64,000 bases of DNA from Escherichia coli (GCF_036507355.1 NZ_AP027877.1), one strand, 5' to 3'. Shown: positions 742 through 61,862, counted from the stretch's first letter. The notes: generated from the sequence alone by a model not told the origin. Numbers and translations: made by a program.

Positions 742-759
742 CGTTTTGTGGTTTTGTAG

Positions 760-830
760 GCCGGATAAGGCGCTTGTGCCGCCATCCGGCAATGCCTGAT
801 GCGCTGCGCTTATCAGGCCTACAATGAACG
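760..830. repeat. REP-like palindromic element downstream of afuC
   Basis: gccggataaggcg / gcctgatgcgctgcgcttatcaggcctac motifs typical of enterobacterial REP units. Confidence 0.5.
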
Positions 831-849
831 ATGTAGACCCGATAAACCC

Positions 850-1782
850 TCAGCTTCGCGCTTTTAACGCGGCGATATCCGCAGGCGTGGTGCGACAGCA
901 CCCGCCAATCAACCGTGCGCCAGCGGCCTGCCACTGCGGCAGATAATCCGCCAGCTGCGCGCAATGTTCACCGTGATGATGCCAGGTTTTGCTCACGGCA
1001 TCGTAATGCTCGCCCGAGTTCGGATACACCACCAGCGGCAGCACCGTTAAACCGTGTAAATGCTGCAACGCAGCAGTGGTGTTTTCCAGCGCAATACAGT
1101 TAATGCCTAGCGCCACCACCTGCGGATAACCCGCCAGCAACGCAACCACGTCACGCAGCGGCGTACCGTCGCTCAGGTGTTCGCTGTCGCGCAGGGTAAA
1201 TGAGAACCACGCCCGCGCACGCGGATATGCGGTCAACAGCTCGGCCAACGCCTCAATCTCGGAAAAATTCGGCAGGGTTTCGCAGGCCAGCAGATCGGCC
1301 CCGGCATCCAGCAAGGCTTCCACGCGCGGGCGATGAAACGCCTGAAATGCCTCAACGCTACAATGATAATCGCCACGGTATTCAGAGCCATCCGCCAGAT
1401 ACGCGCCGTAAGGCCCGACGGATCCCGCCACCAGAAGCGTTCCCGCCTGCGGGTTCTCTGCCAGATACGCTTCACGGGCTTTACGCGCCAGCTCCACGCT
1501 TTTGCCAATCAGCGCTTTCGACTGCGCTTCATCCAGACCTCGCGCGGCGAAGCCCGCCGGCGTCGCCTGATAGCTGGCAGTGATCGCGCATTGCGCCCCC
1601 GCCCGGTAGTAATCAAGATGCACTTCGCGGATAAGCTCCGGGTTTTCTACCAGCACTTTGGCTGACCACAGGCTGTCGGCTAAGTTACACCCTCGCGCTT
1701 CCAGCTCCGTCGCCATCGCGCCATCCAGCAGCAGGATATCCTGTTTATCAAGAAGAGCGCGTAACGGATTATTCTGCGACAT
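850..1782 (-). CDS. mmuM: homocysteine S-methyltransferase (310 aa)
   Basis: ORF 850..1926; start placed at internal [28 protein letters not shown], which matches the MmuM N-terminus. Confidence 0.85.
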
Positions 1783-3172
1783 GTTCTGGCTCCTGTTTTG
1801 CGTTTCGGGGTTGAGTAAGGAAATAAGCACCATAGCACAACGCAACAAACGGTAACCCGCACCACAACGCAATTCTCTGCGCTGGATCGAATGCCAGCCC
1901 AACACAGGCCACCAGGCACAGCACAAAACCTAATACTGGCACCAGCGGATACCACGGCGCGCGATAATGTAATTCACTCAATGCCTTACCTTGTTGCAGA
2001 TGACGGCGACGAAAAACAAAATGCGAGGCGCAGATACTCAGCCACACCGCTACCACCGCAAACCCGGAGATTGCCGACAGCGCAACAAATACCGTGTCCG
2101 GGGCCACCACGCTGGAAAACAGCGCCAGCACACCACCGAGCATACTGACCGACAGCGCCGTCAGTGGCACGCCGTTTTTCGTTACTCGCGCAAAACAGGC
2201 CGGTAGCGTACGTTCATTCGACAACGACCACAGCATGCGCCCGGAGGCATATAACCCGGAGTTCGCTGCAGAAAGAATAGCCGTCAGGATCACGAAGTTA
2301 AAAATATCAGCGGCGTACGGGATCCCTACTTTCTCAAATACCAGCACAAACGGGCTTTTCTCCACGCCCGCCTGCTGCATCGGGATCAGCGCTGCCAGCA
2401 CAAACACGGTGCCGATAAAGAAAATAATCAGTCGCGCGATGGTAGTACGAATCGCTACCGGGATAACTTTGCGCGGGTTTTCCGTTTCACCGGCGGCAAT
2501 GCCGATAAGCTCGGTACCCGAAAAAGCAAAGTTCACTGCCACCATAGTCATCAAAATCGGTAAGCCACCGTGCGGGAACCAGCCTTCTGCCGTGATATTA
2601 CTCAGCCCCGGCGCGGGCGAGCCATCCTGCATCGGAATAAAGCCGAAAATCGCCGCCCCACCGAGGATGATAAAGGCGATGATAGTGACCACTTTGACCA
2701 GCGAGAACCAGAACTCCCCTTCGGCAAAAAAGCGCGTGGAGATAACATTCAGACCAAAAATAATCGCGCAGAACACCACGCACCAGACCCATACCGGCAC
2801 CTGTGGAAACCAGTACTGCATACAGAATCCAGCGGCGGTAAAGCTCGAACCCAGCGCCACGGTCCAGGTCAGCCAGTAAAGCCAGGCCACGGTATACCCG
2901 GTAGCCGGACCAAGATAGCGCGCGGCATAAACGTGAAACGCTCCGGTCTCCGGCATCGCGACCGACAGCTCGCCCAGACACTGCATAACCAGCCAGACCA
3001 CCAGCGCACCAATCAGATAGGCCAGCAGCGTTCCCGCCGCTCCAGTGGTGGAAATGATGTACCCGGTATTGAAGAATAATCCTGTGCCAATCACGCCGCC
3101 CAAGGAAAGCATAATCAGGTGACGCGTTTTCATTGTGCGCTTCAGTGGCGCATTTTGTTGTGTTGTTTGCAT
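1769..3172 (-). CDS. mmuP: S-methylmethionine permease, APC family (467 aa)
   Basis: ORF 1769..3196; start placed at [33 protein letters not shown]; polytopic amino-acid permease; overlaps mmuM start. Confidence 0.85.
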
Positions 3173-3347
3173 ATAACCTTCTAAACGCATGGACATCTAA
3201 ACATCCAAAGAAGGTTTGTTATACCGCGTTTGTTAACAGAATGCAAAGTCAACCCTGCACCAGACGCAGATGCCCGCGCCGGGCGCTTAATAGCGGGTGG
3301 GGATTAATAATCAGATACAAAAAGGGCCGCCAGCTCATAACGCCTCC

Positions 3348-4542
<1,195 letters not shown>

Positions 4543-4659
4543 CAAGAGAACGCAACAGCGCACTTGCTTTGCCACAGTTGAATTTTGTGCCGTAACGATG
4601 TGCAAGCATGTAAGCATAAGGAGTCAAGGTATAGCGTGTTACTTAGTTACTCGGATTAA

Positions 4660-5137
4660 CAATCCCAACGTACAGAGCGGCGGATTTACAGAGTCAGCGC
4701 AGTCCCTGCTCCGGCAGTCAGTGGCAGGCGGCGTACTGAAGCAAACCATTATCGATACCGGCATCGGCGATACCATCGGCATGCTGATGTCACACGGCAA
4801 TATTTCTCCCTACATCATGGCGTGGTTGATAACCGTGCTGATCCGTCTGGCAACGGGTCAGGGCGTGGTCTCAGCCATGACGGCGGCGGGGATTATTAGC
4901 GCAGCAATCCTCGACCCGGCAACCGGTCAACTGGTGGGCGTCGACCCGGCGTTGCTGGTGCTGGCAACAGCGGCTGGCTCCAACACGCTGACCCATATCA
5001 ACGATGCTTCGTTCTGGCTGTTCAAAGGCTACTTTGATCTGTCGGTGAAGGATACGCTGAAAACCTGGGGTCTGCTGGAGCTGGTAAACTCCGTGGTTGG
5101 CCTGATAATCGTGTTGATCATCAGCATGATTGCATAA
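4660..5137 (+). pseudogene. 3' fragment of a GntP-family permease gene, 5' part replaced by IS5
   Basis: Only the C-terminal ~150 aa remain (..[71 protein letters not shown]..); the track ORF 4271..5137 reads through the IS5 terminus. Confidence 0.5.
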
Positions 5138-5186
5138 CGTTGATACCGCTCTGGCCCACAGCGCCAGAGCGGTTTTCCATCCTGCC

Positions 5187-5882
5187 TCAACAATCCTCAA
5201 TAATCAGATATACCGCCTTCACCGGACCATGCACCCCAACCACCTTGATAAGCTCAATATCCGCCGTCGAGCTGGGTCCACTGATGATATTAATGCACGA
5301 TGGCATACGCTCACCGGCCTGTGCTTTCTGATGCAGTTTTTCTGCCAGCTGCGCCACGCGCGGCAGGATGGTGCTTTTACGCAGCACGAAAATAGAGGAC
5401 TCCGGCAACAGGCTCAGGGAGCGCCCGCGCTCCGGTGCGGAAAACAGCACCACGCCGCCGGACTCGGTCAGGCCATATTCGGCATACACCACGCCGACTT
5501 TCGCCTGCTCGGCCTGGGTAATATTTTCGCTACCACGCGCCGGATCCCAGACCACGGCGTTGCATTCCTGCTGCAAGCGTTCGGTGATGCCCAGCTCCAC
5601 CAGCCGGCTGTCGCCGCTCAGCACCACCGGCTGCTGACCCAATTCTTCGCACAGGCGCAGTGCCGCGTCTGCGGCCTGGTCCTCGCTGGTCAGTTCGCAG
5701 CGGGCCAGCATCACTTCGCTGGCAAACTGGATAAACGCAGAGCAGCGCTGCTCGGGGCTAAGCTCGGTCAGGCGCTCGTTGGCATAGTTGTTAACCGGTG
5801 CGGCATCCGCTTGCGGTTCGAAGCGCAGCGGGCGACCCAGCGCCTGGGCGATGGTGTTTAAAAACGCGGTACGGTTATCCAT
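5187..5882 (-). CDS. lutC: LutC/YkgG-family lactate utilisation protein C (231 aa)
   Basis: ORF 5187..6029 with internal start MDNRTAFLNTIAQALGRP; 8-nt overlap with upstream lutB end. Confidence 0.75.
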   Translation of the reverse strand: MDNRTAFLNTIAQALGRPLRFEPQADAAPVNNYANERLTELSPEQRCSAFIQFASEVMLARCELTSEDQAADAALRLCEELGQQPVVLSGDSRLVELGITERLQQECNAVVWDPARGSENITQAEQAKVGVVYAEYGLTESGGVVLFSAPERGRSLSLLPESSIFVLRKSTILPRVAQLAEKLHQKAQAGERMPSCINIISGPSSTADIELIKVVGVHGPVKAVYLIIEDC

Positions 5883-7302
5883 TCTTTTTCTCCTGCGCCT
5901 GATGTTTCTTAAACCAGCTGCGGAAGCTCTCGCCGTCAGCATCAGGCAGATCGCGCGCCTCCATCCAGTCACCAATCGCGCCAACCTTGAGCGGGGTTTT
6001 GCCGCCATTGATAAACCAGCTCGCCGCATGCGCGCCCGCCATCATCCCGACTTTCCACAGCCCCGGATGGCTATTGGCATAGGCGAACATCTTGATCGCC
6101 CGTCGCTCGGCTTTCGGCGTAATGCCCTCCTCGGCCATCACCCGGCGATGACGCAGGATCAGTTTTGACAACGGAATACGCACCGGGCAGACGCTGTCAC
6201 AAGCCGTGCACAAAGAACAGGCGTACGGCAGGTCTTTAAAATCTTTATAGCCGCCGAGCAGCGGAGAAATCACCGCGCCGATAGGGCCGGGATAGATAGA
6301 GCCATAGCCGTGCCCGCCGATGTGGCGGTACGCCGGACAGGTGTTCATACAGGCTCCGCAGCGGATGCAGCGCAGCACATCGCGAAACTCTGAGCCCAGC
6401 ACCTGCGAGCGACCGTTATCGACAATCACCAGATGGAACTCTTCCGGTCCGTCAACGTTGTCCGCCTCACGCGGGCCGGTCAGCCAGGTGTTGTAGCCCG
6501 TCAGACGTGCGCCCACGGCGCTGCGCGCCAGCATGGTAATCAGCACATCCACCTCGGCAAAGGTCGGCGCGATACGCTCCATGCCCATCACCGCAATGTG
6601 CGTTTTCGGTAGCGTGGTGCACATGCGCGCGTTGCCTTCGTTGGTCACCAGACACACCGAGCCGGTTTCCGCCACGGCAAAGTTACAGCCAGTAATACCG
6701 ATTTCGGCACTGAGGAAATCCTCGCGGATCTTCTGACGAATGAACAAGGTCATAGCTTCCGGGGTTTCCGGGCCGTCGTACCCCAGACGTTCGTTCAGCA
6801 CGCGGCGGATCTGGTAGCGATCTTTATGAATCGCCGGAACCACGACGTGCGAAGGCGGATCCTGATCCAACTGCAGGATATATTCCCCGAGATCGGTTTC
6901 GATCACCTGGATTCCGGCATCCTGCAACACATGGTTGACGCCGATTTCTTCGGTCACCATCGACTTGGACTTCACCACCTTCTGCGCATTTTTACTCTGC
7001 GCGACCTGCAAAATGTAGCGAGTGGCATCTTCTTTGGTTTTGGCGAAATAGACGTGTCCGCCGTTTTCCGTCACTTTCTCGGAGAGTTGGTACAGGTAAG
7101 CGTCGAGGTTGCTCAGAACGTGATCGCGGATCTGGCTGGCACGATCGCGCCATTCTTCCCAGTGGCCTAACTCATCGACCATTTTTTGCCGATTCGCGCC
7201 GATACGCTCCTGCGCATTAGCTACGGCTTTGCGCATAATCGGATCTTCTATCTGCTGACGAATACGCAGTTTAAATTCTACATCGCTGGTTTTTATCGAC
7301 AT
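5875..7302 (-). CDS. lutB: LutB/YkgF-family iron-sulfur lactate utilisation protein (475 aa)
   Basis: Two ferredoxin-type Cys clusters (CIRCGACMNTCP, CSLCTACDSVCP); length and order match LutB/YkgF. Confidence 0.85.
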   Translation of the reverse strand: MSIKTSDVEFKLRIRQQIEDPIMRKAVANAQERIGANRQKMVDELGHWEEWRDRASQIRDHVLSNLDAYLYQLSEKVTENGGHVYFAKTKEDATRYILQVAQSKNAQKVVKSKSMVTEEIGVNHVLQDAGIQVIETDLGEYILQLDQDPPSHVVVPAIHKDRYQIRRVLNERLGYDGPETPEAMTLFIRQKIREDFLSAEIGITGCNFAVAETGSVCLVTNEGNARMCTTLPKTHIAVMGMERIAPTFAEVDVLITMLARSAVGARLTGYNTWLTGPREADNVDGPEEFHLVIVDNGRSQVLGSEFRDVLRCIRCGACMNTCPAYRHIGGHGYGSIYPGPIGAVISPLLGGYKDFKDLPYACSLCTACDSVCPVRIPLSKLILRHRRVMAEEGITPKAERRAIKMFAYANSHPGLWKVGMMAGAHAASWFINGGKTPLKVGAIGDWMEARDLPDADGESFRSWFKKHQAQEKKNG

Positions 7303-7312
7303 CTCTTTCCCC

Positions 7313-8032
7313 TCAGCGGCTCATCAGCACTTCAGCAATATGCATCACTTTGACCGGCTGGCCTTCCCGTTGCAGTCGACCGCCAATGTTCAGCAGGCAG
7401 CTAACGTCTGCGCCAATCAAAAATTCCGGCTTTGCGTCCATCAGATGTAATACTTTCTCTTTCACCATCTCACCGGATATCTCGGCCATCTTGACCGAGA
7501 ACGTCCCGCCAAAGCCGCAACAGGTATCCTGATCGGCAAACGTCAACAGCTCCAGTCCGCGCACGTTTTTCAGCAGCGTAAGCGGCTCTTCCTTCACTCC
7601 CAGTTTGCGGGTCAGGCTACAGGAAGGATGATACACAGCGCGGCCCTGCAGGCTGGCACCAACGTCCACCACACCCAGTTTGTTGACGATAAAGGAGGTG
7701 AGATCCTGCATACGCGCGGAAACTTTCTCAGCACGCAGCGCCCATTCCGGTTCATCGGCCAGATACGTCGGGTAGCTTTTAACCGCGTAGGTGCAGGAGC
7801 CCGCCGGGGAGATAATCGGATCGTCGTTGTCTTCCAGCGCGGCGATCAGGTTTTTCATCCCGGGAATCGCCTCTTTGATGTAACCGCTGTTGATGGCTGG
7901 CTGACCGCAACACCCTTGCTTCTCGGGGAAATTAACGCGACAACCCAGTTTTTCCAGCAGCAATACGGAGTCTCGTGCCATCCGTGATTTCAGTGCGTCA
8001 CCAATACAGGTGACAAAGAAATTTACATTCAC
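7313..8032 (-). CDS. lutA: LutA/YkgE-family Cys-rich Fe-S oxidoreductase subunit (239 aa)
   Basis: CCG-type Cys-rich domain (FVTCIGD.., CCGQPA.., CCGFGG); first gene of the lutABC-like trio. Confidence 0.85.
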   Translation of the reverse strand: MNVNFFVTCIGDALKSRMARDSVLLLEKLGCRVNFPEKQGCCGQPAINSGYIKEAIPGMKNLIAALEDNDDPIISPAGSCTYAVKSYPTYLADEPEWALRAEKVSARMQDLTSFIVNKLGVVDVGASLQGRAVYHPSCSLTRKLGVKEEPLTLLKNVRGLELLTFADQDTCCGFGGTFSVKMAEISGEMVKEKVLHLMDAKPEFLIGADVSCLLNIGGRLQREGQPVKVMHIAEVLMSR

Positions 8033-8069
8033 AATAACTACTCCATTGCTTCATTTCTGTTTATTGCGC

Positions 8070-8087
8070 TTGATATCGCGATATCAA
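8070..8087. promoter_or_regulatory. Perfect 18-bp palindrome TTGATATCGCGATATCAA between the dld-like stop and lutA start
   Basis: Read directly from sequence; self-complementary; no T-run follows on either strand, so more likely an operator than a terminator. Confidence 0.3.
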
Positions 8088-8106
8088 ACAAATGTTCATT
8101 CGTATT

Positions 8107-9804
8107 TCATGCCCAGTTTTTATGTTTGCTGGTTTTACCAATACCTGGGTTCATAGTGTTGGTCGGATCATTTTCCTGATAAAAACGTGCCAAATTTTCC
8201 GGCGCTTTATACAGATGGCCGACATTGTGTTCCGCCGGATATTGCGCTCCGCGTTGGCGCAGTAATTCCAGCATCTGTTCTTTTAACGCGTGGGCATCTA
8301 CGCCTTTTTTAACGATATAATCCTGATGGAATACATGGCACATAAAATGGCCGTAATAGAGTTTATGCACCAACTGACTGTCAATTTCCGTCGGTAAATG
8401 CTCATACCATTCGGTATCATTGCGGCGTAATGGAATATCCAGCGCGAGAATATCCTCAACCTCGTCAGAATGAACAGCCTGATAACGAATGGCAGCACCC
8501 GCGGCGGCAAAACGATGCAGAAACGCCTTACTGCCCTCTTCCGCGGTACAGGTAAAGAACGCGCCCTCGGCCGATTTAAAATAGTCCGTTAACCATGCCT
8601 GGGCTTCGGCCACACCCTCACCGGACATTTTCAACATCAGATGGTGTTCATAGTTATCGCGCCAGGTCTTCATCCGCGCCGGGAGATGGCTCGGGAACAG
8701 ATGGCTAAAAGCCTGCATCGCGCGGTCGGTAAAGTGCGGGCGAAAGATCTTCACCTTCTCAAGTATGGCCTCGGTACGCCCCTTCAGGTTGAAGAAGAAC
8801 GGCATTTTGTCCGTGCCAAGTTTGTCGATCATCAGGAAGGTATCTTTGCTGTATTTCTCTGCAATATCATAGATATCGCGGTGCATATACTCCCCAGCAA
8901 CCGGCAGGTTTGTAAAATTCGCCAGGATGTGGCGGCGAATCTCAGTCAGGACATCAGTCTGATTGGTACCGATATAAAAGACCTGCTGGTTCTTCTCGGC
9001 TTCAAAGGTATCCAGACGTACGGCAAACACCGCTAACTTGCCCGCACAGCCAGAGGATTCAAACAGGCGATCCGGGTCAGCGTTGTAACGTGCTGGCGTG
9101 TCGGCATTGATGTCCCGCACGCGGCTAACATAGTCGTGATCGTGCGCGTGACGCCCGTCATGGTTGACGAGCACGGCTTCAATCGCATTGTTATCCAGCC
9201 GGGCAAGGATTTGCTCTGGCGTCTGACCTAGCTCAATGCCGAGGTGATTGACCAGCTGCAAGCGTCCCTGTTCATCAATACGGGCAAACAGCGACATCTC
9301 GGTATAAGCCGGGCCACGCTGGACCAGAGAACCGCCGGAGTTATTACAGATACCGCCGATAACCGACGCGCCGATGCACGAAGAGCCAATCACCGAATGC
9401 GGCTCACGGCCAAACGGCTTCAGCGCCTTTTCCAGCGAATACAGCGTGGTGCCCGGATAAGCCAGCACCTGCTTACCCTCATCTAGCACATGCAGACTGT
9501 CCAGCCGCAGCGTGCTGATAATGACGATCTCGCGGTCGTAATCATTACCATTGGGCGTCGAACCCTCAGTCAGGCCAGTGTTCGACGCCTGCATCAGGAT
9601 TATTTTATCGGCCTCAACGCAGGCGCTAAGGACTTTCCAGAGTTCAAGCAAAGAGCCGGGGATAACCACCGCCAGAGCATCACCCTGACCCGAGCGAAAA
9701 CCCTTACGGTAACGCGCAGTTTTTGACGGTTCGGTGAGGATATGAGCAGGGCCAACCAATTGGGTAAGAGTTGTCAAAAAGGTCTTATTATCAGTATGTT
9801 TCAT
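8107..9804 (-). CDS. dld: FAD-dependent D-lactate dehydrogenase, Dld paralogue (~565 aa)
   Basis: Collinear full-length similarity to E. coli Dld (..ARYRKGFRSGQGDALAVV.PGSLLELW.., ..RHILANF.NLPVAGEYMHRDIYDIAEKY..); start chosen at MKHTDNKTFL inside ORF 8107..9852; many substitutions versus K-12 Dld as recalled. Confidence 0.8.
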   Translation of the reverse strand: MKHTDNKTFLTTLTQLVGPAHILTEPSKTARYRKGFRSGQGDALAVVIPGSLLELWKVLSACVEADKIILMQASNTGLTEGSTPNGNDYDREIVIISTLRLDSLHVLDEGKQVLAYPGTTLYSLEKALKPFGREPHSVIGSSCIGASVIGGICNNSGGSLVQRGPAYTEMSLFARIDEQGRLQLVNHLGIELGQTPEQILARLDNNAIEAVLVNHDGRHAHDHDYVSRVRDINADTPARYNADPDRLFESSGCAGKLAVFAVRLDTFEAEKNQQVFYIGTNQTDVLTEIRRHILANFTNLPVAGEYMHRDIYDIAEKYSKDTFLMIDKLGTDKMPFFFNLKGRTEAILEKVKIFRPHFTDRAMQAFSHLFPSHLPARMKTWRDNYEHHLMLKMSGEGVAEAQAWLTDYFKSAEGAFFTCTAEEGSKAFLHRFAAAGAAIRYQAVHSDEVEDILALDIPLRRNDTEWYEHLPTEIDSQLVHKLYYGHFMCHVFHQDYIVKKGVDAHALKEQMLELLRQRGAQYPAEHNVGHLYKAPENLARFYQENDPTNTMNPGIGKTSKHKNWA

Positions 9805-10239
9805 GGAGGGCGGCTCTCCGCTCCTTATATCAGGGCCAGTGAAAATGGCCATAAGTTCATTTGTACGACAAAACAGAATATTCCCTCAATCAATATCCAC
9901 ATGCAATACCCCATTTTATTTCTTTCGGCACCGCTCACATTTTTTAATGAAATTACCACTACCACATAATTCATACTCCGTTCTTTTACTGGATGCCAAA
10001 ACGCTTATTTCATTTATTGCAAAGACCATTTCATACCTATTAATGATTAACTCTAATGGGTATTATTATATTTAGTGGTTATTCATATTTAATAAAAAAA
10101 TAACATTATTTATACAATTATTAACCTTTGTAACTTTATTTCACTGAAGCGATTCAGTTTGCATTTTTTATTTTATTATTAAGGTAGCCTCCTTCCCCCT
10201 AAATATAGTTAAGTCTAAAAAAGTAAATCGAGAATTGTA

Positions 10240-11793
10240 ATGCACGAATATTTAATGTTTGCCCTGGCACTCTCTCCTTTGCTGCTGATGGTATTTTTAA
10301 TACTGAAATTAAAAATGCCCATCCATTATTCCGTACTGATCTCTTTGGTATTCACCGCTGCACTATCGGCAATATTCTGGGAAATGCCCACACAGAATCT
10401 GAAAGCCGCGATAGGCTATGGTGCACTGAAGGGACTATGGCCGATCGTAATTGTTATCCTCGGCGCTATCTTCAGTTATAACGTCATGCAGGCGACCAAA
10501 GCGCTGGATATTCTGCGCGATATTCTCGCCAGCATTAGCGAAGATAAGCGTATTCAGGTGCTGCTGATTTCATGGTGTTTTGGTGGATTTCTTGAAGCCG
10601 CTGCGGGCTATGGCACGGCGGTCGCTATTCCGATCGGTATTCTCATTGCGCTGGGATTCAACCCGTTGAAGGCGGCGATTGCTTCCCTCGTAGCAAATAC
10701 CGTTCCGACCGCATTTGGCGCGGTTGGGATCCCAGTTTCTATTCTGGCAGAGCAGGTTAATCTGCCGGTTTATACCTTAGGCGGAACCATTATTTTGCAG
10801 CTCGCGCTGTTTAATATCCTGCTGCCGTTTGTGATTGTCTGCATTATTGGCGGTGGCCTGAAAGCCATTCGCGGCGTATTTCTGATCACGTTGATTTGCG
10901 GCATTTCCACGCTGGTTCCGCAATATTTTGTCGCCATCCATCTTGGCGCGGAATTACCCGCCTTTGCCGGTAGCCTGGTCAGCCTGTTTGCCGTGGCGAT
11001 GGTCAGTCGCCTGCGCAAAGGGAAAACCGATCCCGAGTGGCGCATTGAGGTCAGCCATACCCGCGAAACCACGCCGCGCTCGGCAAAAGTGTTGTTCCGG
11101 GTTGGCTCTATTTATCTGTTTATTTTTGTGTTTATCCTGCTGTGTTCGCCGCTGTTCCCGACAATAAAAAGCGTGGCATCCCAACTGGCTTCGGTGCTGC
11201 ATTTCACGTTGGCTGACGGCAAAACGATGGCGCTGAAAGTTGAATGGGCGACCACACCGGGGATGCTGATCATCTTTGCGACCATTATCGGCGGTTTTAT
11301 TCAGGGAGCGTCCGCACGTGGGATGCTGGAAGTATTTATCAAAACGATTTTCCAGCTTAAAAACTCTATCGTCGCAATTATGGCGATCGTCGCGCTGGCC
11401 ACGGTGATGGATCTCAGCGGGATTATCTCCACGCTGGCCCAGTCGATTGTCGATCTGACCGGCAGCTCGTACGTCTTCCTCGCCCCGGTGATTGGCGCGC
11501 TGGGCACGTTCGTGACCGGCAGCGATACCAACTCGAACATTCTGTTCGGCAAGCTGCAAACCATTGCCGCCAGCAAGTTACATATCGATCCTAACTGGCT
11601 GGCGGCGGCCAATACCTCTGGCGCTACGGGGGGGAAAATGATTTCGCCGCAAAGCATCGCCATCGCAGTTTCTGCCACCAAAATGGACGGTCAGGCCAAC
11701 CAGATTATGTCTGGCACCATGAAATACTGCTGCGCCTACATTGTGATCCTCGGCCTGAAAGTCGGTCTGTTTTATTACTGGTTTATGGCGTAA
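10240..11793 (+). CDS. L-lactate permease, LctP family (517 aa)
   Basis: Polytopic membrane protein with the LctP-family N-terminus; divergent from the dld-like operon across a 435-bp AT-rich region. Confidence 0.8.
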   Translation: MHEYLMFALALSPLLLMVFLILKLKMPIHYSVLISLVFTAALSAIFWEMPTQNLKAAIGYGALKGLWPIVIVILGAIFSYNVMQATKALDILRDILASISEDKRIQVLLISWCFGGFLEAAAGYGTAVAIPIGILIALGFNPLKAAIASLVANTVPTAFGAVGIPVSILAEQVNLPVYTLGGTIILQLALFNILLPFVIVCIIGGGLKAIRGVFLITLICGISTLVPQYFVAIHLGAELPAFAGSLVSLFAVAMVSRLRKGKTDPEWRIEVSHTRETTPRSAKVLFRVGSIYLFIFVFILLCSPLFPTIKSVASQLASVLHFTLADGKTMALKVEWATTPGMLIIFATIIGGFIQGASARGMLEVFIKTIFQLKNSIVAIMAIVALATVMDLSGIISTLAQSIVDLTGSSYVFLAPVIGALGTFVTGSDTNSNILFGKLQTIAASKLHIDPNWLAAANTSGATGGKMISPQSIAIAVSATKMDGQANQIMSGTMKYCCAYIVILGLKVGLFYYWFMA

Positions 11794-11995
11794 ACCATTG
11801 TCAACCCCGTCAAATTCGCGGCAATCGAATTTGACGACATAGTGACCAAAAAGGTTTACACCGCCCCGGGAACGGAACGAGGCAACAGACTTTACGATTT
11901 GTCGGCGCTGACTAAAATAGCGCCGATGTTTCAAATCGAGGATTGTTGTTATGTTGTTCTGGAAAAAGATGGTGAAGAAGTTCGACGCCTTTTCC

Positions 11996-12350
11996 GGTGA
12001 TGCTGCCAACTTACTGATTTAGTGTATGATGGTGTTTTTAAGGTGCTTGCGTGGCTTCCATTTCCATCAGATGTCCTTCCTGCTCCGCTACTGAAGGCGT
12101 GGTGCGTAACGGCAAAAGCACTGCCGGACATCAGCGCTATCTCTGCTCTCATTGCCGTAAAACATGGCAACTGCAGTTCACTTACACCGCCTCTCAGCCC
12201 GGTACGCACCAGAAAATCATTGATATGGCCATGAATGGCGTCGGATGTCGCGCCAGTGCACGCATTATGGGCGTTGGCCTCAACACGATTTTCCGCCATT
12301 TAAAAAACTCAGGCCGCAGTCGGTAACCTCGCGCATACAGCCGGGCAGTG
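11996..12350 (+). mobile_element. IS1 left portion (~355 bp), truncated by an IS2 insertion
   Basis: IS1 terminus GGTGATGCTGCCAACTTACTGATTTAGTGTATGATGGTG at 11996; intact insA; sequence switches to the IS2 terminus at 12351. Confidence 0.85.
12051..12326 (+). CDS. insA: IS1 InsA (91 aa, variant allele)
   Basis: [68 protein letters not shown].. Confidence 0.9.
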
Positions 12351-12979
12351 TAGACTGGCCCCCTGAATCTCCAGACAACCAATATCACTTAAATAAGTGA
12401 TAGTCTTAATACTAGTTTTTAGACTAGTCATTGGAGAACAGATGATTGATGTCTTAGGGCCGGAGAAACGCAGACGGCGTACTACACAGGAAAAGATCGC
12501 TATCGTTCAGCAGAGCTTTGAACCGGGAATGACGGTCTCCCTTGTTGCCCGGCAACATGGTGTGGCAGCCAGCCAGCTATTTCTCTGGCGTAAGCAATAC
12601 CAGGAGGGAAGTCTTACTGCTGTGGCTGCCGGAGAACAGGTCGTTCCTGCCTCTGAACTTGCTGCCGCCATGAAGCAGATTAAAGAACTCCAGCGCCTGC
12701 TCGGCAAAAAAACGATGGAAAATGAACTCCTTAAAGAAGCCGTTGAATATGGGCGAGCAAAAAAGTGGATAGCGCACGCGCCCTTATTGCCCGGGGATGG
12801 GGAGTAAGCTTCGTCAGCCGTTGTCTCCGGGTGTCGCGTGCGCAGTTGCACGTCATTCTCAGACGAACCGATGACTGGAAGGAAGGCCGCCGCAGCCGTC
12901 ACACGGATGATACGGATGTGCTTCGCCGTATACACCATGTTATCGGAGAGCTGCCCACATATGGTTATCGTCGGGTATC
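12351..12979 (+). mobile_element. IS2 left ~630 bp, 3' part deleted
   Basis: IS2 terminus TAGACTGGCCCCCTGAATCTCCAGACAACCAATATCACTTAAATAAGTGATAGTC at 12351; insC intact; insD reading frame leaves IS2 after ..PTYGYRRV near 12979. Confidence 0.85.
12442..12807 (+). CDS. insC: IS2 OrfA / InsC (121 aa)
   Basis: [56 protein letters not shown]..; A7 slippery run at 12707-12713. Confidence 0.9.
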
Positions 12980-13235
12980 CGGTCCCACCTTGCAGGTTTT
13001 ACGTACCCGCCAGTCGCCCGATGGCTGCGAGGATGGCAGTTACTACTACCTCGTGGATATGCAGAGAAAAACCGTCCAGCCACTGATGAATGCGCTGTGT
13101 ATTGCCGATAACATCAAACTGGAATACCAGGAGGTGACGGACCCGTATACCAAAGAAAAATACTTTGAGTACGCCCATGACGGCAAACTGATGGGGCAGC
13201 TACTGATACCCTCGAACCCTGACAATCAGGAATAA
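12765..13235 (+). pseudogene. Chimeric ORF: IS2 InsD N-terminus fused in frame to the 3' part of a YafY/YfjS-family lipoprotein gene
   Basis: N-terminal half is InsD (..[21 protein letters not shown]); C-terminal half (..[39 protein letters not shown]..) parallels the intact lipoprotein at 55404..55856. Confidence 0.7.
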
Positions 13236-13258
13236 AAACAACGATAAAGGAAACAGAA

Positions 13259-13726
13259 ATGACAATACGTTCACTAAGTCGGTTTGTGCTGGTGGGTGTA
13301 CTGCTCGCGAGCTTTAATGCCTCTGCTATCCCGGGGTTCTGGCAGCAGGGTTACGGTCAGGGCAATACGGAATACAGTGTGACCGAAGCCAGCGGGAAGA
13401 CGTTTACCATCAACTGCACAGGGAACCCGGACCAGAATGGTTTTTATCAGCATTCAGTCTTTCTTACCCTTGCCGATGACAAGATGGTCAGTTCGCACGA
13501 TGACGACACTACTATCACCGTAGTGATGGATCACCAGCAGTACATTATTCCGTCCAGCCTGGGCTGGCGTAACGGCGATAACGCCTGGTTTGACTTCATC
13601 AGCAATATCTCTGAGGCCGGGCAGTTCGACGTCTACGTCAATGACCACAAAGCAGGGACCTTCACTGCGGACCGGAAGAACGCTGAGAAAGTTCTGTCCA
13701 CTCTCGGAGACTGCAGCAACGACTGA
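13259..13726 (+). CDS. Secreted protein of unknown function, prophage-remnant module (YkfB-position)
   Basis: N-terminal signal peptide [23 protein letters not shown]; position between lipoprotein fragment and DUF905 gene. Confidence 0.55.
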
Positions 13727-13802
13727 TAGTAGTATCTTCCCCAGCAAATCCACCCCGACAGCTAGCAGGCTGCCGGGGTTTTCTTTTATCAGGAGCCCGA
13801 AA

Positions 13803-14042
13803 ATGACCCAATCCGTGTTGCTGCCACCGGGGCCTTTCACCCGGAGACAAGCGCAAGCGGTCACTACCACGTACAGCAATATCACACTCGAAGACGACCA
13901 GGGCAGTCACTTCCGTCTGGTGGTTCGTGATACTGAAGGCCGGATGGTCTGGCGGGCATGGAACTTTGAGCCGGATGCCGGTGAAGGTCTTAACCGCTAT
14001 ATCCGCACCTCAGGCATCCGTACAGACACGGCCACCCGCTGA
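13803..14042 (+). CDS. Small DUF905-like protein (79 aa, YkfF-position)
   Basis: ATG at 13803 inside ORF 13590..14042; size and position as in CP4-6/CP4-57-type modules. Confidence 0.5.
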
Positions 14043-14139
14043 TCGCGAAGCATTTACCCGCATTCACCTCCCCGAACACACTTTATATCCCCATACGCCA
14101 GCCATCGCCGCTGGCGTTTTTATTGACGGAGACATACCC

Positions 14140-14598
14140 ATGACAACACAGACGCAGCACGACCTCGCACCCGCTAACCAACCCGAATTTGAACTGACCG
14201 TCACGCCGGTCCCCGATGAACAGCGTATCGATTTCTGGCCACAGTACTTTGGCGCTATCCCGCAGTGGCTACTCCTGGAGCCGCATATCTTCGCCTGGAT
14301 GGACCGCTTCTGTGAGGGCTACAGCGGTGGTATCTGGTCGTTCTACACCCTCAGCAATGGCGGCGCATTTATGTCCCCCGAGCCTGACAACGATGAGACA
14401 TGGCGTCTGTTTAACTGCCTGAACGGTAACGATGCCCAAATGAGTGCAGAAGCAGCAGGTATTGCTGTCTGCCTGATTGCGTATAGCCACCATGCCTGCC
14501 GTACAGAATGTGACGCGATGACCGCACACTATTACCGCCTGCGGGAGTATGCCATGCAACATCCAGAGGCTCACGCCATTCTGCGTATTATCGACTGA
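14140..14598 (+). CDS. Antirestriction protein, ArdB/KlcA-like (YafX/YfjX family)
   Basis: ..[51 protein letters not shown].. ; paralogue of 58068..58538. Confidence 0.75.
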   Translation: MTTQTQHDLAPANQPEFELTVTPVPDEQRIDFWPQYFGAIPQWLLLEPHIFAWMDRFCEGYSGGIWSFYTLSNGGAFMSPEPDNDETWRLFNCLNGNDAQMSAEAAGIAVCLIAYSHHACRTECDAMTAHYYRLREYAMQHPEAHAILRIID

Positions 14599-14613
14599 CC
14601 GAAGGAGCAACAG

Positions 14614-15090
14614 ATGAAACAGCTTTCCTTTTTACCCGGCGAGATGACGCCACAGGACCGGCGTCTCATTCAGCGGGCGCTCAGGGCTCTGGACCGCCAC
14701 CTGCATGAGCCCGGCGTAGCCTTCACCTCTACCCACGCCGTACGTGAATGGCTGCGACTGCATATGGCCGCGCTTGAGCGGGAAGAGTTCCGGGTGTTGT
14801 ATCTGGACAACCAGAATCAGTTGATTGCCCATGAAACGCTCTTCACCGGCACGATTAACCGCACCGAGGTGCATCCCCGGGAGGTGGTCAAACGTGCTCT
14901 GCACTTCAACGCGGCGGCGGTGATACTCGCGCATAACCATCCTTCCGGCGAGACGACACCTAGCCAGGCCGACAAAACCCTCACGCAGCGACTGGTTCAG
15001 GTGCTTCAGCTGGTGGATATCCGTGTCCCTGACCATCTGATTGTCGGTGGCAGGCAAATCTATTCGTTCGCAGAACACGGTCTGCTTTGA
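14614..15090 (+). CDS. RadC-like JAB-domain protein (YkfG/YfjY/YeeS family)
   Basis: JAMM-like motif ..AAAVILAHNHPSGETTPSQADKTLTQRL.. Confidence 0.8.
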   Translation: MKQLSFLPGEMTPQDRRLIQRALRALDRHLHEPGVAFTSTHAVREWLRLHMAALEREEFRVLYLDNQNQLIAHETLFTGTINRTEVHPREVVKRALHFNAAAVILAHNHPSGETTPSQADKTLTQRLVQVLQLVDIRVPDHLIVGGRQIYSFAEHGLL

Positions 15091-15098
15091 GGTATTAC

Positions 15099-15320
15099 AT
15101 GAAAATTATCAGTAAACGCAGGGCAATGACGATATACCGCCAGCATCCTGAGTCCCGAATCTTTCGCTACTGCACCGGCAAATACCAGTGGCACGGTAGC
15201 GTCTGTCATTACACCGGCAGGGACGTTCCGGATATCGCCGGAGTCCTCGCGGTATACGCCGAACGCCGCCAAGACCGCAATGGGCCCTATACCTGCCTGA
15301 TGAGCATCACCCTGAACTGA
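15099..15320 (+). CDS. DUF987 protein (YkfH/YpjJ/YeeT family)
   Basis: MKIISKRRAMTIYRQHPESRIFRYCTGKYQWHGSVCHYTG.. ; paralogue at 59050..59271. Confidence 0.7.
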   Translation: MKIISKRRAMTIYRQHPESRIFRYCTGKYQWHGSVCHYTGRDVPDIAGVLAVYAERRQDRNGPYTCLMSITLN

Positions 15321-15338
15321 CAATAGTGGAGAACTGTA

Positions 15339-16018
<680 letters not shown>

Positions 16019-16399
16019 ACATTGCGTACAACCTTCCCGATTTACATTTCTGAACTTCCTCCCTTGTTTACCTATTGCGTAATGCGCCTGCTACTACCCG
16101 GCAGGCGCGTTATCTTTTTACGGACAAACAATCATGCAACCAGAAGTTGAAGTATTAACCGATCATAATGAGCTAATTTGTTCGAGCTTTATTGAACACA
16201 TTGCCAACACATTAAATTTAGGAGTGGTGTACAACTAAACCTGCAGCCAAGGATGTATAGTGAGCGAAGCCCTATCAGGCCTTTTTGGTCAGTAGATAAG
16301 ATTGATCTTCGTTGATAGAATTTACTTACACCAGCTGTTACATTAAGATAATTTTTTGGTGGGAGAATGATAAGATCTTACGTAACAATTTGATTTTAA

Positions 16400-16475
16400 T
16401 GGTGCCGATAATAGGAGTCGAACCTACGACCTTCGCATTACGAATGCGCTGCTCTACCAACTGAGCTATATCGGC
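16400..16475 (-). tRNA. thrW: tRNA-Thr (anticodon CGU)
   Basis: Reverse complement reads GCCGATATAGCTCAGTTGGTAGAGCAGCGCATTCGTAATGCGAAGGTCGTAGGTTCGACTCCTATTATCGGCACCA. Confidence 0.9.
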
Positions 16476-16589
16476 CCTGAAAGGACATGTTCACGAACGT
16501 GAATCACGGTGGACAAGGTTAAAACTAACCGGGCGATGCGTCAATGGCCTTGTGAATCAAATGGCTACTTTTGCATCACCCGATTTTAT

Positions 16590-17843
16590 TTACGCACGAA
16601 TGGTGTAATCACCAATGCCGATCCACTTGTAAGTGGTCAGTGCTTCCAGCCCCATTGGGCCACGCGCGTGGAGTTTTTGTGTGCTTACCGCCACTTCCGC
16701 ACCCAGTCCAAACTGGCCGCCGTCGGTAAAACGCGTAGAGGCGTTAACGTAAACAGCGGACGAATCCACTTCGTTAACAAAACGCTGGGCGTTGCGCATA
16801 TCGCGGGTCAGGATCGCATCGGAGTGTTGTGTGCCGTGTTCACGAATATGGGCGATGGCATCGTCAAGATCGCTGACGATTTTGACGTTCAAATCTAATG
16901 ACAGAAACTCATCGTCATACTCTTCGGCTTTAACCGCCACCACCTTCGCGGGGCCTGCCTGCAACTGTGTCAGCGCAGCTGCATCTGCGTGTAATGTCAC
17001 GCCGCTTTCCGCCATTTGTTTGCTTAATACGGGCAGGAAGCTATCGGCGATGTTTTTATTCACCAGCAACGTTTCTACCGTATTACATGTGCTCGGACGC
17101 TGAGTTTTCGCATTGACGATTACTTTCAGGGCTTCAGCAATCTCTGCACTTTCATCAACATAAATATGGCATACGCCTATACCACCTGTGATCACCGGGA
17201 TCGTCGACTGCTCGCGGCACAGTTTATGCAAACCAGCCCCGCCGCGCGGGATCAGCATGTCGATGTATTTATCCATACGCAGCATTTCACTGACCAGCGC
17301 ACGGTCAGGATTATCAATCGCCTGCACGGCACCCGCCGGTAAGCCACAGGATTTCAGGGCGTCCTGAATCACCGCCACCGTTGCCGCGTTAGTGCGACAG
17401 GTTTCTTTGCCACCACGCAGGATCACCGCATTACCGGTTTTCAGGCACAGCGAAGCGACATCAACCGTCACGTTCGGGCGCGCTTCATAAATCACGCCAG
17501 TAACCCCCAGCGGTACGCGACGACGCTCAAGACGCAGGCCGCTGTCCAGTACGCCGCCATCGATTACCTGCCCCACCGGATCGGCGAGGTTGCACACCTG
17601 GCGCACATCATCGGCAATGCCTTTCAGCCGTGCGGGCGTCAGTGCCAGACGGTCAAGCATCGCTTCGCTAAGGCCATTGGCTCGCGCGTCAGCAACATCC
17701 TGGGCGTTAGCGTTGAGGATGATTTCGCTTTGTGCTTCCAGTTCATCGGCGATTTTTTCCAGCACGCGATTTTTTTCGCGGCTGGAGAGTTGCGCTAATT
17801 TATACGAGGCTTGCTTCGCGGCAATGCCCATTTGTTCCAGCAT
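16590..17843 (-). CDS. proA: gamma-glutamyl phosphate reductase (417 aa)
   Basis: Full-length match to ProA. Confidence 0.95.
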
Positions 17844-17854
17844 CGGCCAGCTCC

Positions 17855-18958
17855 TTAACGGGTAATCATGTCATCACGGTGAACGGCAACCGGGCCGTAT
17901 TCATATCCCAGTATTGCATCAATTTCTTGCGAGTGGTGTCCGGCAATACGGCGTAATGCATCGCTGTTGTAACGACTGACGCCGTGGGCGATATCGCGAC
18001 CTTCGAGGTTACAAATGCGGATGACTTCACCACGCGAGAAATTGCCAGTCACGCTTTTAATGCCTTTCGGCAACAGGGAGCTGCCGCATTCAAGAATGGC
18101 GGCAGTTGCCCCTTCATCTACCGTGATTTCACCCGCCGGCGGCGCACCGAAAATCCAGCGTTTACGGTTTTCAAGCGGAGTCGCCTGGGCATGGAACAGC
18201 GTACCGACGGAAATGCCTTCCATCACATCACCAATGACGCCCGGCTTGCTGCCCGCGGCAATAATGGTGTCGATACCCGCACGGCAAGCCACGTCCGCGG
18301 CCTGCAATTTGGTACTCATGCCGCCAGTTCCGAGGCCTGAAACGCTGTCACCGGCAATCGCGCGCAGTGCGTCATCAATACCGTAAACATCTTTAATCAA
18401 TTCTGCCTGCGGATTACTGCGCGGGTCAGCGGTATACAAACCTTTTTGATCGGTCAGTAACAACAGTTTATCGGCACCCGCCAGAATCGCCGCCAGTGCA
18501 GAAAGGTTGTCGTTATCGCCGACTTTAATCTCTGCCGTAGCGACAGCATCGTTCTCATTGATTACCGGAACGATATTGTTATCGAGCAACGCACGCAGGG
18601 TGTCGCGGGCGTTCAGGAAGCGTTCACGGTCTTCCATATCAGCACGGGTCAGCAGCATTTGCCCGACGTGAATGCCATAAATTGAAAACAGCTGTTCCCA
18701 CAGTTGAATCAGTCGACTCTGCCCTACCGCCGCCAGCAGTTGTTTCGAGGCGATAGTCGCTGGCAGTTCTGGGTAACCCAGGTGCTCACGTCCGGCGGCG
18801 ATCGCGCCCGACGTCACAATAACAATCCGATGCCCGGCGGCATGTAACTGCGCGCACTGGCGAACAAGTTCAACGATATGGGCACGGTTCAGGCGGCGCG
18901 ATCCGCCTGTTAGCACACTGGTGCCGAGTTTTACCACCAGCGTCTGGCTGTCACTCAT
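17855..18958 (-). CDS. proB: glutamate 5-kinase (367 aa)
   Basis: Start at [19 protein letters not shown] inside ORF 17855..19045. Confidence 0.95.
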
Positions 18959-19245
18959 GATTCTCTGCCATTCAATTTTAGGAAAAATGATATCAAACGA
19001 ACGTTTTAGCAGGACTGTCGTCGGTTGCCAACCATCTGCGAGCAAAGCATGGCGTTTTGTTGCGCGGGATCAGCAAGCCTAGCGGCAGTTGTTTACGCTT
19101 TTATTACAGATTTAATAAATTACCACATTTTAAGAATATCATTAATCTGTAATATATCTTTAACAATCTCAGGTTAAAAACTTTCCTGTTTTCAACGGGA
19201 CTCTCCCGCTGAATATTCGCGCGTTAATTAAAATCAGGAATGAAA

Positions 19246-20301
19246 ATGAAAAAGAGCACTCTGGCATTAGTGGTGATGGGCATTGTGGCATCTGCATCCG
19301 TACAGGCCGCAGAAATATATAACAAAGACGGTAATAAACTGGATGTCTATGGCAAAGTTAAAGCCATGCATTATATGAGTGATAACGACAGTAAAGATGG
19401 CGACCAGAGTTATATCCGTTTTGGTTTTAAAGGCGAAACACAAATTAACGATCAACTGACTGGTTATGGTCGTTGGGAAGCAGAGTTTGCCGGTAATAAA
19501 GCAGAGAGTGATACTGCACAGCAAAAAACGCGTCTCGCTTTTGCCGGGTTGAAATATAAAGATTTGGGTTCTTTCGATTATGGTCGTAACCTGGGCGCGT
19601 TGTATGACGTGGAAGCCTGGACCGATATGTTCCCGGAATTTGGTGGCGACTCCTCGGCGCAGACCGACAACTTTATGACCAAACGCGCCAGCGGTCTGGC
19701 GACGTATCGGAACACCGACTTCTTCGGCGTTATCGATGGCCTGAACTTAACCCTGCAATATCAAGGGAAAAACGAAAACCGCGACGTTAAAAAGCAAAAC
19801 GGCGATGGCTTCGGCACGTCATTGACATATGACTTTGGCGGCAGCGATTTCGCCATTAGTGGGGCCTATACCAACTCAGATCGCACCAACGAGCAGAACC
19901 TGCAAAGCCGTGGCACAGGCAAGCGTGCAGAAGCATGGGCTACAGGTCTGAAATACGATGCCAATAATATTTATCTGGCAACTTTTTATTCTGAAACACG
20001 CAAAATGACGCCAATAACTGGCGGCTTTGCCAATAAGACACAGAACTTTGAAGCGGTCGCTCAATACCAGTTTGACTTTGGTTTGCGTCCATCGCTGGGT
20101 TATGTCTTATCGAAAGGGAAAGATATTGAAGGTATCGGTGATGAAGATCTGGTCAATTATATCGATGTCGGTGCTACATATTATTTCAACAAAAATATGT
20201 CAGCGTTTGTTGATTATAAAATCAACCAACTGGATAGCGATAACAAATTGAATATTAATAATGATGATATTGTCGCGGTTGGCATGACCTATCAGTTTTA
20301 A
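19246..20301 (+). CDS. phoE: outer membrane phosphoporin PhoE (351 aa)
   Basis: [37 protein letters not shown].. ending ..VGMTYQF. Confidence 0.95.
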
Positions 20302-20309
20302 TGATTATT

Positions 20310-20330
20310 GCCGGATGTGATGCATCCGGC
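20310..20330. terminator. Shared hairpin between convergent phoE and crl
   Basis: gccggatg-tgatg-catccggc immediately after the phoE stop. Confidence 0.5.
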
Positions 20331-20339
20331 ACATTTCAC

Positions 20340-20798
<459 letters not shown>

Positions 20799-39139: not shown

Positions 39140-39571
39140 TCATTGACCAATGTGAATTGGCAATGTACCACTCAAGTTAAAATCACTGAATATTTTATCA
39201 ATTTCTCTTGCAGTTTCTATATATTTAACCTCTTTCGTACTTGCATTATAAATAGCCCAAGCCTCGGAATGGGATGTTTCACCAAACCTTACAAAAAAAC
39301 TTGATTTCATATTATTATATAAATTAACATCAGGAAAAGGATCTTCTCCAAAATTAGTAGTATTGAATAATGAAAGTTCGTATCGCTTAGAAAATTCTAT
39401 TGGTAGGATAGCTTCACTGCCATCAATAGCATTCATCCAGAGTTTGTTACCATTATATTCCAACAATAATCTCTGTTTTGCATGTGTCTTATCTCGTTCT
39501 TTAACGACAGCGAATACCTTTTTAACAACTTGCTGTGCGGATGGTCCTATTGTATTACCAAAAGCTGGCAA
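39140..39571 (-). CDS. Hypothetical protein, start uncertain (TTG start in track; out-of-frame ATG with strong SD just upstream)
   Basis: ORF 39140..39571; AT-rich; lies between two H-rpt fragments. Confidence 0.35.
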   Translation of the reverse strand: MPAFGNTIGPSAQQVVKKVFAVVKERDKTHAKQRLLLEYNGNKLWMNAIDGSEAILPIEFSKRYELSLFNTTNFGEDPFPDVNLYNNMKSSFFVRFGETSHSEAWAIYNASTKEVKYIETAREIDKIFSDFNLSGTLPIHIGQ

Positions 39572-60570: not shown

Positions 60571-60601
60571 ATCTTCTCACCAATAAGCACAGGATATTCT
60601 C

Positions 60602-60805: not shown

Positions 60806-60885
60806 CCACCGAACAGTACTCATCACTTACTCATAATCGCCAGCCCTCACCGGCTGGCGCTTTGCTTTATATAAGGAACGAAATA

Positions 60886-61730: not shown

Positions 61731-61862
61731 GAGGTGAGTGAGTTGTCCGAAGCTATCTCAGGTGAGCCAGTGCAAGCCGGACGGCAATGGCATACTGGAT
61801 GGCATACCGAAAAAAACAAGCATAAAAAAGGCCATGCTAATCAATAGCATGGCCTCGAATAG

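Follow-up and report, generated by a model that had tools for sequence, protein, structure and literature searches.

A probable decayed end of a CP4-6-type island beside thrW in Escherichia coli: DUF4942 remnants, an att arm and a candidate integrase arm-type site

What occupies the short AT-rich spacer between a CbtA-type toxin gene and the tRNA gene thrW in Escherichia coli, and does it hold a gene, a regulatory RNA, or the remains of an attachment site? The question was raised by an original prediction made for a window of 64,000 nucleotides (i.e., the whole stretch of DNA analysed here, from GCF_036507355.1, NZ_AP027877.1), in which the spacer was described as unannotated, a 34-codon ORF was pointed out, and an att remnant, a small protein, or a small RNA was suggested as its content. 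The spacer lies where it had been placed, at positions 16019-16399, and measures 381 bp from the toxin stop codon (16016-16018) to the 3' end of thrW; its GC content of 38.6%, as against 51.0% for the whole window and 54.6% for the adjoining island genes, bears out the description as AT-rich. In the current analysis, we describe this spacer as what is very probably the decayed right-hand end of a CP4-6-type integrative island in thrW, made up of a terminator, the stumps of a DUF4942 gene, an att arm, and the start of the att core. Parts of this picture are already known: the ORF had been annotated as pseudogene ykfN and the junction as CP4-6 attL, and the terminator and arm are standard kinds of element. 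The assignment of ykfN to DUF4942, the identification of a 3' stump, and an arm motif whose geometry is conserved across different tRNA targets are new here, and in practical terms the thrW end of CP4-6-type islands is now precisely mapped.

The left border of the spacer is formed by a toxin gene of the ykfI type (15677-16018, plus strand; Pfam CbtA_toxin, E 2.2e-68; K-12 ykfI 263328-263669), upstream of which lies an antitoxin gene of the yafW type (15339-15656, plus strand; Pfam CbeA_antitoxin, E 1.7e-49) that aligns to K-12 yafW. The right border is thrW itself, a tRNA-Thr(CGU) gene on the minus strand (16400-16475; ARAGORN; Rfam tRNA, 71.8 bits) whose 3' end faces the spacer, and beyond thrW come proA and then proB. 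The spacer sequence recurs in E. coli K-12 MG1655 at 262947-263327, in the opposite orientation and with 100% identity; of 5426 complete E. coli genomes, 454 carry it, almost always at 99% identity or more. As for its being unannotated, this holds for the pipeline annotation, which places no feature under the spacer among the matches listed (460 matching E. coli records), but not for the curated MG1655 record, which carries the pseudogene ykfN (b4626) at 263150-263212, equivalent to window 16134-16196. In the same curated record, the CP4-6 prophage feature begins at 262898, within thrW (window 16448).

Although distinct from K-12, the window is ~98.8% identical to it over 12976-20670. Upstream of 12976, IS elements have rearranged the island, which there differs from that of K-12 in having an IS1 fragment, lactate-utilisation genes, and an IS5-family element; positions 1-12975 contain afuC-mmuM-mmuP (1-3363), the IS5-family element (3348-4542), and the IS1 fragment (11992-12350), and genes for D-lactate dehydrogenase, L-lactate permease, and ykgEF-like products occupy ~4.5-12 kb of the window. 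Among the complete E. coli genomes in the collection, colinearity with window 1-22000 never extends over more than 74% of it.

The spacer opens with a leader of ~113 nt (16021-16133, plus strand) that travels with DUF4942 genes: it aligns upstream of DUF4942 in 10 other contexts, among them sites next to hsdM where the toxin gene is absent. Within this leader, a terminator scan, folding, and covariation converge on a hairpin with a 14-bp stem (16079-16113) followed by CTTTTT (whole element 16079-16120, plus strand), which is the sole terminator-like site that the scan returned in the region. The hairpin has a folding energy of -23.1 kcal/mol (z -3.9), with none of 200 shuffles equally stable, and is kept in 10 homologous leaders, with 4 of its 14 pairs changed on both sides. 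It shares with Rho-independent terminators its GC-rich stem (7 of the 14 pairs are G-C), 7-nt loop, T-run, and compensatory changes, and is thus classed as an intrinsic terminator, presumably that of the antitoxin-toxin transcript, which would end here, normally just upstream of the DUF4942 gene. It differs from the usual Rho-independent terminator in that only ~14-20 nt separate it from the downstream start codon and it travels together with the gene that begins there; because of this position and company, it would also limit or gate read-through into DUF4942 in intact islands. In E. coli B1, A4, A38, and D217-5 (L008-L011), a DUF4942 gene with the same ~110-nt leader and hairpin is found at a distance from any toxin-antitoxin pair, flanked on one side by the divergently oriented hsdM gene of a type I restriction-modification system and on the other by mcrB or DUF6088, and there the leader begins where the toxin stop codon would be.

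The sequence that follows the leader derives from a DUF4942 gene. When searched in the 'distant' mode, the first ~185 nt of the spacer match hundreds of other E. coli genomes, under features named 'DUF4942 domain-containing protein', and the 5' half of the spacer is 85-89% identical to the toxin-DUF4942 junction of intact islands. In UPEC_U013, for example, the toxin gene is followed by 114 nt and then by an 834-bp DUF4942 gene, and the alignment begins at the toxin stop, continues past the start codon, and ends at about window 16205, where the DNA alignments to other DUF4942 genes end as well. A 5' remnant comprising the first 23-24 codons (16134-~16206, plus strand) can thus be delimited, and the K-12 ykfN annotation (16134-16196) falls within it. 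The spacer copy has the same leader, terminator hairpin, start codon, first 23 residues, and position as the DUF4942 (PF13708) genes that follow cbtA-family toxin genes at E. coli island ends, but ~225 codons of the intact gene are missing from it.

Where the other end of this gene went was revealed by ECC-1470, which carries a related island at thrW in the same orientation, with a DUF4942 gene that is full length (846 bp), has an internal stop, and ends 104 bp before thrW. A local alignment of 16200-16399 to this island begins exactly at the TAA at 16297-16299, which corresponds to the DUF4942 stop codon, and runs on to thrW. Megablast and blastn searches with 16200-16399 against E. coli returned, besides copies of ~99-100% identity, only a handful of diverged ones, of which ECC-1470 was examined, and the intervening 90 nt (16207-16296) gave no BLAST match. 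The stretch 16207-16299 was then aligned globally to the last 96 nt of eight DUF4942 genes and scored against 1000 shuffles. Against ET210, 63 of 82 positions are identical (0/1000 shuffles as good), and against U013 60 of 83 (4/1000), while the other six alleles gave weaker alignments that were marginal or not significant; ET210 and U013 are the alleles closest to the 5' stump. The best local match lies at the colinear offset from the stop in six of the eight genes. We thus describe 16207-16299 (plus strand) as a degraded, out-of-frame DUF4942 3' remnant whose ancestral stop is the TAA at 16297-16299. Together, the 5' alignment, the stop-codon alignment, and the 3'-end alignments indicate that the spacer keeps both ends of one DUF4942 gene minus roughly codons 25-248; the gene would have lost its middle by internal deletion, with two stumps left behind. 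Since the intact U013 protein has its Pfam DUF4942 domain at residues 83-271 (230 bits), the whole domain is deleted here. Searches with intact DUF4942 gave no match in PDB, NCBIfam, or PADLOC.

These remnants also account for the 34-codon ATG ORF (MQPEVEVLTDHNELICSSFIEHIANTLNLGVVYN), which is present as described, with the same translation, at 16134-16238 on the plus strand and consists of ykfN and a read-on tail. Only residues 1-23 match DUF4942 proteins, with 17 of 23 residues identical to the DUF4942 N-terminus (E 2e-10), and a Pfam search with the 34-residue product returned 0 families at E up to 1; judged by Pfam domain the ORF does not belong to DUF4942 (PF13708), whereas judged by homology it is a remnant of it. 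The open frame extends 13 codons past the annotated ykfN pseudogene, and the last 10-11 codons derive from the out-of-frame 3' remnant. With ykfN (b4626) of K-12 MG1655 it agrees in sequence and position, without a single difference. An older database may have listed ykfN under 'YdiA family', a label on which nothing here relies. A search of the accessible literature for ykfN retrieved no relevant paper. On these alignments, the ORF reads as the DUF4942 5' stump running into out-of-frame debris, that is, as a pseudogene and not as a small-protein gene.

Kluyvera provides the comparison by which a functional product can be judged. Kluyvera ascorbata (L024 3395-6415) and K. georgiana (L033 12550-14316) carry the same deleted version of DUF4942 at the same thrW island end, and the spacer is ~98% identical between Kluyvera and the window, compared with 89% in K. 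ascorbata over a 3-kb region that includes proA, which points to a recent exchange of the island end between Escherichia and Kluyvera. That the ORF was retained after the deletion as a functional small protein is a reading to which we give next to no credence. Its ATG and leader do belong to a real gene, and codons 1-31 are identical in E. coli and the two Kluyvera species; however, such identity carries no signal because the spacers as a whole have diverged so little, and with 6 substitutions in 381 nt a stretch of 93 nt would be expected to have none ~22% of the time (our own arithmetic). Nor is the ORF, taken alone, evidence for a gene, because an ATG ORF of at least 34 codons arises in 1097 of 2000 shuffles of the spacer (55%). 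Conservation of the small ORF across genomes had been proposed as a check, and here the proposal of a small protein gives way: an 8-bp indel after window 16232 changes the tail in Kluyvera, where the ORF ends in ...GVV and a stop, and distant relatives read on to 278 amino acids, so that the comparison shows no sign of selection on a 34-residue product. The ORF thus lacks the frame and stop conserved in diverged relatives that would mark a functional small-protein gene, and the strong terminator 14-20 nt upstream leaves no room for a promoter. The curated record, too, lists a pseudogene, and no discussion of the ORF was found in the literature searched. We have therefore removed the ORF, in which the start of a 278-codon DUF4942 gene has become joined out of frame to other sequence, from the small-protein candidates, and the curated K-12 pseudogene call is right.

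The window contains a second island end of the same build. The aspV island (59705-61939) ends beside the 3' end of its own tRNA with the same module, namely a CbtA toxin gene (59705-60082), a DUF5983 gene (60079-60570), a leader hairpin (~60841-60862), and a DUF4942 gene (60887-61730); the last appears frameshifted near 61390, its open frame matching only positions 1-91 of the 190 in the profile. A spacer of ~130 bp with a different hairpin precedes aspV (61863-61939, minus strand), and no copy of the thrW-arm motif described below was found in the aspV island end. This island also carries type VI secretion cargo, all on the minus strand, comprising a Tle1-like phospholipase effector (40896-42953), a DUF4123 adaptor (43302-44069), and a truncated VgrG-like protein (47534-49237). 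DUF4942 at island termini has been inactivated in three independent ways, by internal deletion in the K-12 type and Kluyvera (window 16134-16299), by an internal stop in ECC-1470 (L004 7143-7988), and by a frameshift in the aspV island (window 60887-61730), which suggests that DUF4942 decays readily or is counter-selected.

A further possibility is that the spacer encodes a small regulatory RNA, for example one derived from the 3'-UTR of the toxin mRNA, with its end at the terminator, or one transcribed from the AT-rich arm. An ncRNA predictor singled out the gap between thrW and ykfI, 25 nt of which changed in a tiling-array experiment (PMC6505713); genomic SELEX placed RpoH and RpoE holoenzyme peaks in this convergent gap (PMC5493296). 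Promoter-like sites are found at 16293-16321 and 16325-16352, and the leader with its hairpin folds well (z -4.3). Against this, the four promoter-like sites found are within noise (1.8 +/- 1.4 expected), folds outside the terminator are no better than those of shuffles (z -1.3 and -1.4), and the leader is accounted for as the 5' region of DUF4942 genes. A search of 13000-19000 against Rfam 15 at E up to 1 yielded, in the region of the spacer, tRNA alone, and the small RNA that had been suggested finds no known family there; we regard this explanation as very improbable and retain the reading of an island end. By our own coordinate conversion, the centre of the SELEX peak (K-12 old coordinate 262270) falls at about window 16300, near the start of the att arm. 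A thrW terminator or a small RNA within the arm was also considered and dropped, the folds of 16255-16300 (plus strand) and 16250-16399 (minus strand) being no better than those of shuffles.

The suggestion of an island-tRNA junction with an att sequence fared better. A 60-nt att identity block on the minus strand (16389-16448) comprises the 3' 49 nt of thrW and 11 nt beyond the CCA, the latter (16389-16399) lying inside the spacer, where the first 11 nt of what would be the core repeat run on into thrW, and the adjoining ~90 bp have the features of a conserved recombination arm. In K-12 this block is repeated (L001 4899-4958 = 39207-39266): 60 nt are perfectly conserved, or 70 nt at 96%, at a spacing of 34,308 bp and just beyond intF, and the direct repeat of the thrW 3' end that was to be looked for at the distal boundary is therefore present in the K-12 reference. 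The 64-kb window contains no second thrW 3' end; judging from the K-12 map, the distal copy would be found outside the window, ~18 kb ahead of position 1. The empty site reconstructed from thrW and the yagP flank occurs at 100% identity in ATCC 8739 and other strains, and with at least 80% query coverage in 1897 of 5426 genomes, and this natural equivalence of the empty site with thrW joined to the distal flank confirms the island boundary. A distal direct repeat and a cognate tyrosine integrase are found in the K-12 reference, the empty site in other strains, and repeated candidate arm sites at conserved spacing across related loci (see below), as befits a tRNA-targeting att site. The 60-nt repeat, the boundary in thrW, and the size agree with CP4-6 attL/attR (thrW / ptwF-intF) in GenBank and in the published account, which gives 34,308 bp, the same as the repeat spacing found here (PMC3105296). 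The arms of attL/attR were not found dissected in the searchable literature; a 20-nt motif and its fixed spacing are described here.

In ECC-1470 (thrW at L005 133-210) and Enterobacter wuhouensis (L029), the tRNA 3' end rebuilt by the island reads ...GGCATCA instead of ...GGCACCA, and CCA is not encoded. The ECC-1470 thrW also has a compensatory pair change in its T-stem, and the original thrW 3' end is found at the distal att site.

Can such an island still move? It had been argued that both islands appear fixed since no integrase gene adjoins either tRNA. The observation is correct, in that no integrase gene lies next to thrW or elsewhere in the window, but the conclusion does not follow for the CP4-6-type family, because the integrase sits at the far end of the island beside a partial tRNA copy (31-34 kb away in K-12 and ECC-1470) and CP4-6 of K-12 is reported to excise, in 1-27 per 100,000 cells (PMC3105296, Wang et al.). 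A fixed island, with the spacer as nothing but a dead att remnant, would be consistent with the absence from the 64-kb window of an integrase gene, a second thrW 3' copy, and a second motif copy, and with the IS rearrangement upstream of 12976 relative to K-12, through which the distal end may have been lost. On the other hand, the distal integrase would be located before window position 1, and the window retains an intact att core and arm that do not differ from those of K-12, where excision is reported; we consider a fixed island unlikely. The arm would still be functional in the strain from which the window comes, where it may nevertheless be an orphan. More generally, the absence of an integrase beside a tRNA gene should not be equated with an immobile island, given that this family keeps the integrase at the other end.

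Between the DUF4942 stop and the core, the remaining ~90 bp of the island terminus would constitute the integrase-distal terminal arm of the att site (16300-16388). This stretch is 75% identical to that between the DUF4942 stop and thrW in ECC-1470, and its layout recurs beside tRNA-Thr or tRNA-Arg in 12 other Enterobacterales loci. Its putative elements are of three kinds. Paired ATTGAT / GTTGAT boxes (16301-16316, plus strand) come first, a GTTGAT-N4-6-GTTGA(T) pair preceding the motif on both arms in nearly all related loci, and may be protein-binding elements of the arm. They are followed by a 20-nt double TTACA motif, ACTTACACCAGCTGTTACAT (16324-16343, plus strand), with two half-sites 12 bp apart, which is a candidate integrase arm-type site by virtue of its repeat near intF and its fixed distance from the tRNA. 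At the tRNA end, a CGTAAC box is combined with a match to the IHF consensus (16381-16395; AATCAAATTGTTA on the minus strand at 16383-16395), the latter read from sequence only.

The 20-nt motif first stands out in K-12, where a second direct repeat of 26 nt (25 of 26 identical) has one copy at 263001-263026 (window 16320-16345) and the other at the 5' boundary of intF as annotated; in the window, the motif occurs as a single copy, against 0.03 expected. The pattern ACTTACACCAGCNNTTACAT was then scanned for in one genome per species (100,044 species, 298 Gb, both strands), which returned 34 loci, compared with ~9 expected by chance (18 fixed bases; our own arithmetic). Because the scan was for an exact motif, invariance among the hits is given by construction, and it is their position, their duplication, and the internal repeat in K-12 that constitute independent evidence. 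At least 21 of the 34 loci have one of two geometries, into which the Enterobacterales hits divide as two classes. In class A, the motif follows ~25 nt behind a DUF4942 stop, and 56-58 nt separate its end from the 3' end of a tRNA gene on the opposite strand; the tRNA is tRNA-Thr(CGT) in Kluyvera and Enterobacter wuhouensis and tRNA-Arg(TCT) in Serratia, Erwinia, Enterobacter, Brenneria, Winslowiella, and Citrobacter; in Buttiauxella agrestis, a tRNA-Arg end is seen in the sequence, and ARAGORN called no tRNA gene at the locus. A CGTAAC-N3-TTGA-N-TTTAA element at the tRNA end is common to the thrW- and argU-specific members of this class. In class B, 35-55 nt separate the motif from the start codon of an integrase gene downstream, and the CCA end of a partial tRNA copy precedes the first base of the motif by 175-178 nt (the copy being that of thrW, argU, or two further tRNAs in Halomonas and an uncultured proteobacterium). 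Paired (G/A)TTGAT boxes stand just before the motif in both classes, and five genomes have one class A and one class B locus on the same contig.

The fixed distances from the tRNA end on both arms, with thrW, argU, and other tRNAs as targets, make the motif a likely integrase arm-type site, and spacing, duplication, and domain content all favour 16324-16343 as a candidate pair of half-sites that IntF likely binds. K-12 IntF, encoded outside the window, has an Arm-DNA-bind_3 domain (Pfam, E 1e-10) in addition to its Phage_integrase domain (E 4e-17), and this protein, made from the other island end, would most likely engage the arm elements in the excision/integration complex. Whether IntF-family integrases generally use one such 20-nt site (ACTTACACCAGC-NN-TTACAT), at fixed distances on both arms and with different tRNAs (thrW, argU, and at least two others), is a broader claim, towards which we lean with some reserve. 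The arrangement resembles that of the heterobivalent tyrosine integrases, such as lambda Int and IntS of KplE1 (PMC2951348), in that repeated short sites flank a core overlapping the 3' end of a tRNA gene, arm binding is assigned to a domain of its own in the integrase, and the int promoter region overlaps the arm, resulting in negative autoregulation. It differs from them in the sequence of the candidate motif and in the int gene, which adjoins the partial tRNA copy and reads away from it, as in the 'OD shape' of PMC2951348. In such an arrangement of gene and tRNA, the promoter has been argued to overlap the recombination region (PMC2951348, Panis et al.).

The regulation of intF brings the distal copy of the motif into play. 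IntF represses a PintF fragment (-145 to +71) ~23-fold (PMC2951348, Panis et al.), and this fragment includes the distal motif copy. A consensus promoter scan upstream of K-12 intF gave no sigma-70 promoter overlapping the motif, and the idea of an operator therefore rests on the sequences of other species and on PMC2951348. One could argue that the thrW-proximal 100 bp are inert and that the motif is hitch-hiking sequence, a promoter element present in two copies, or the target of the excisionase-like YkgV: it overlaps weak -35/-10-like hexamers on both arms (e.g., TTTACT-16-TAGAAT upstream of int in Serratia and Lelliottia), and YkgV, an HTH_17 protein, is encoded near intF. However, both arms keep a fixed distance between the motif and the tRNA end, whichever tRNA is targeted and even in genera with diverged surroundings, the integrase bears an arm-binding domain, and the IntF-dependent repression was obtained with a fragment that carries the distal copy (PMC2951348). 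An inert arm has, on this evidence, only a slim chance of being the right description, and we continue to favour an integrase arm-type site. If the broader claim is right, the IntF family would show how, in nature, an unchanged arm module can be paired with exchanged core specificities, and the int-proximal copy of the motif would double as an operator for integrase autoregulation. The analysis also provides a testable candidate IntF arm site, conserved from Escherichia to Serratia and Erwinia. A literature search with the motif sequence retrieved only unrelated primers.

The same comparison of loci bears on the start of intF. In this region (L001 39020-39097, K-12 297019-297096), the annotated start, which gives a protein of 466 amino acids, has probably been placed 25 codons too early, as the conserved N-terminus, MALSRQKFTFER, begins at a downstream ATG. 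A TAG right after the motif closes the upstream int frame in Serratia, Erwinia, Lelliottia, and Winslowiella, where the downstream ATG has an AGGAG ahead of it; the 441-aa form of IntF translates cleanly.
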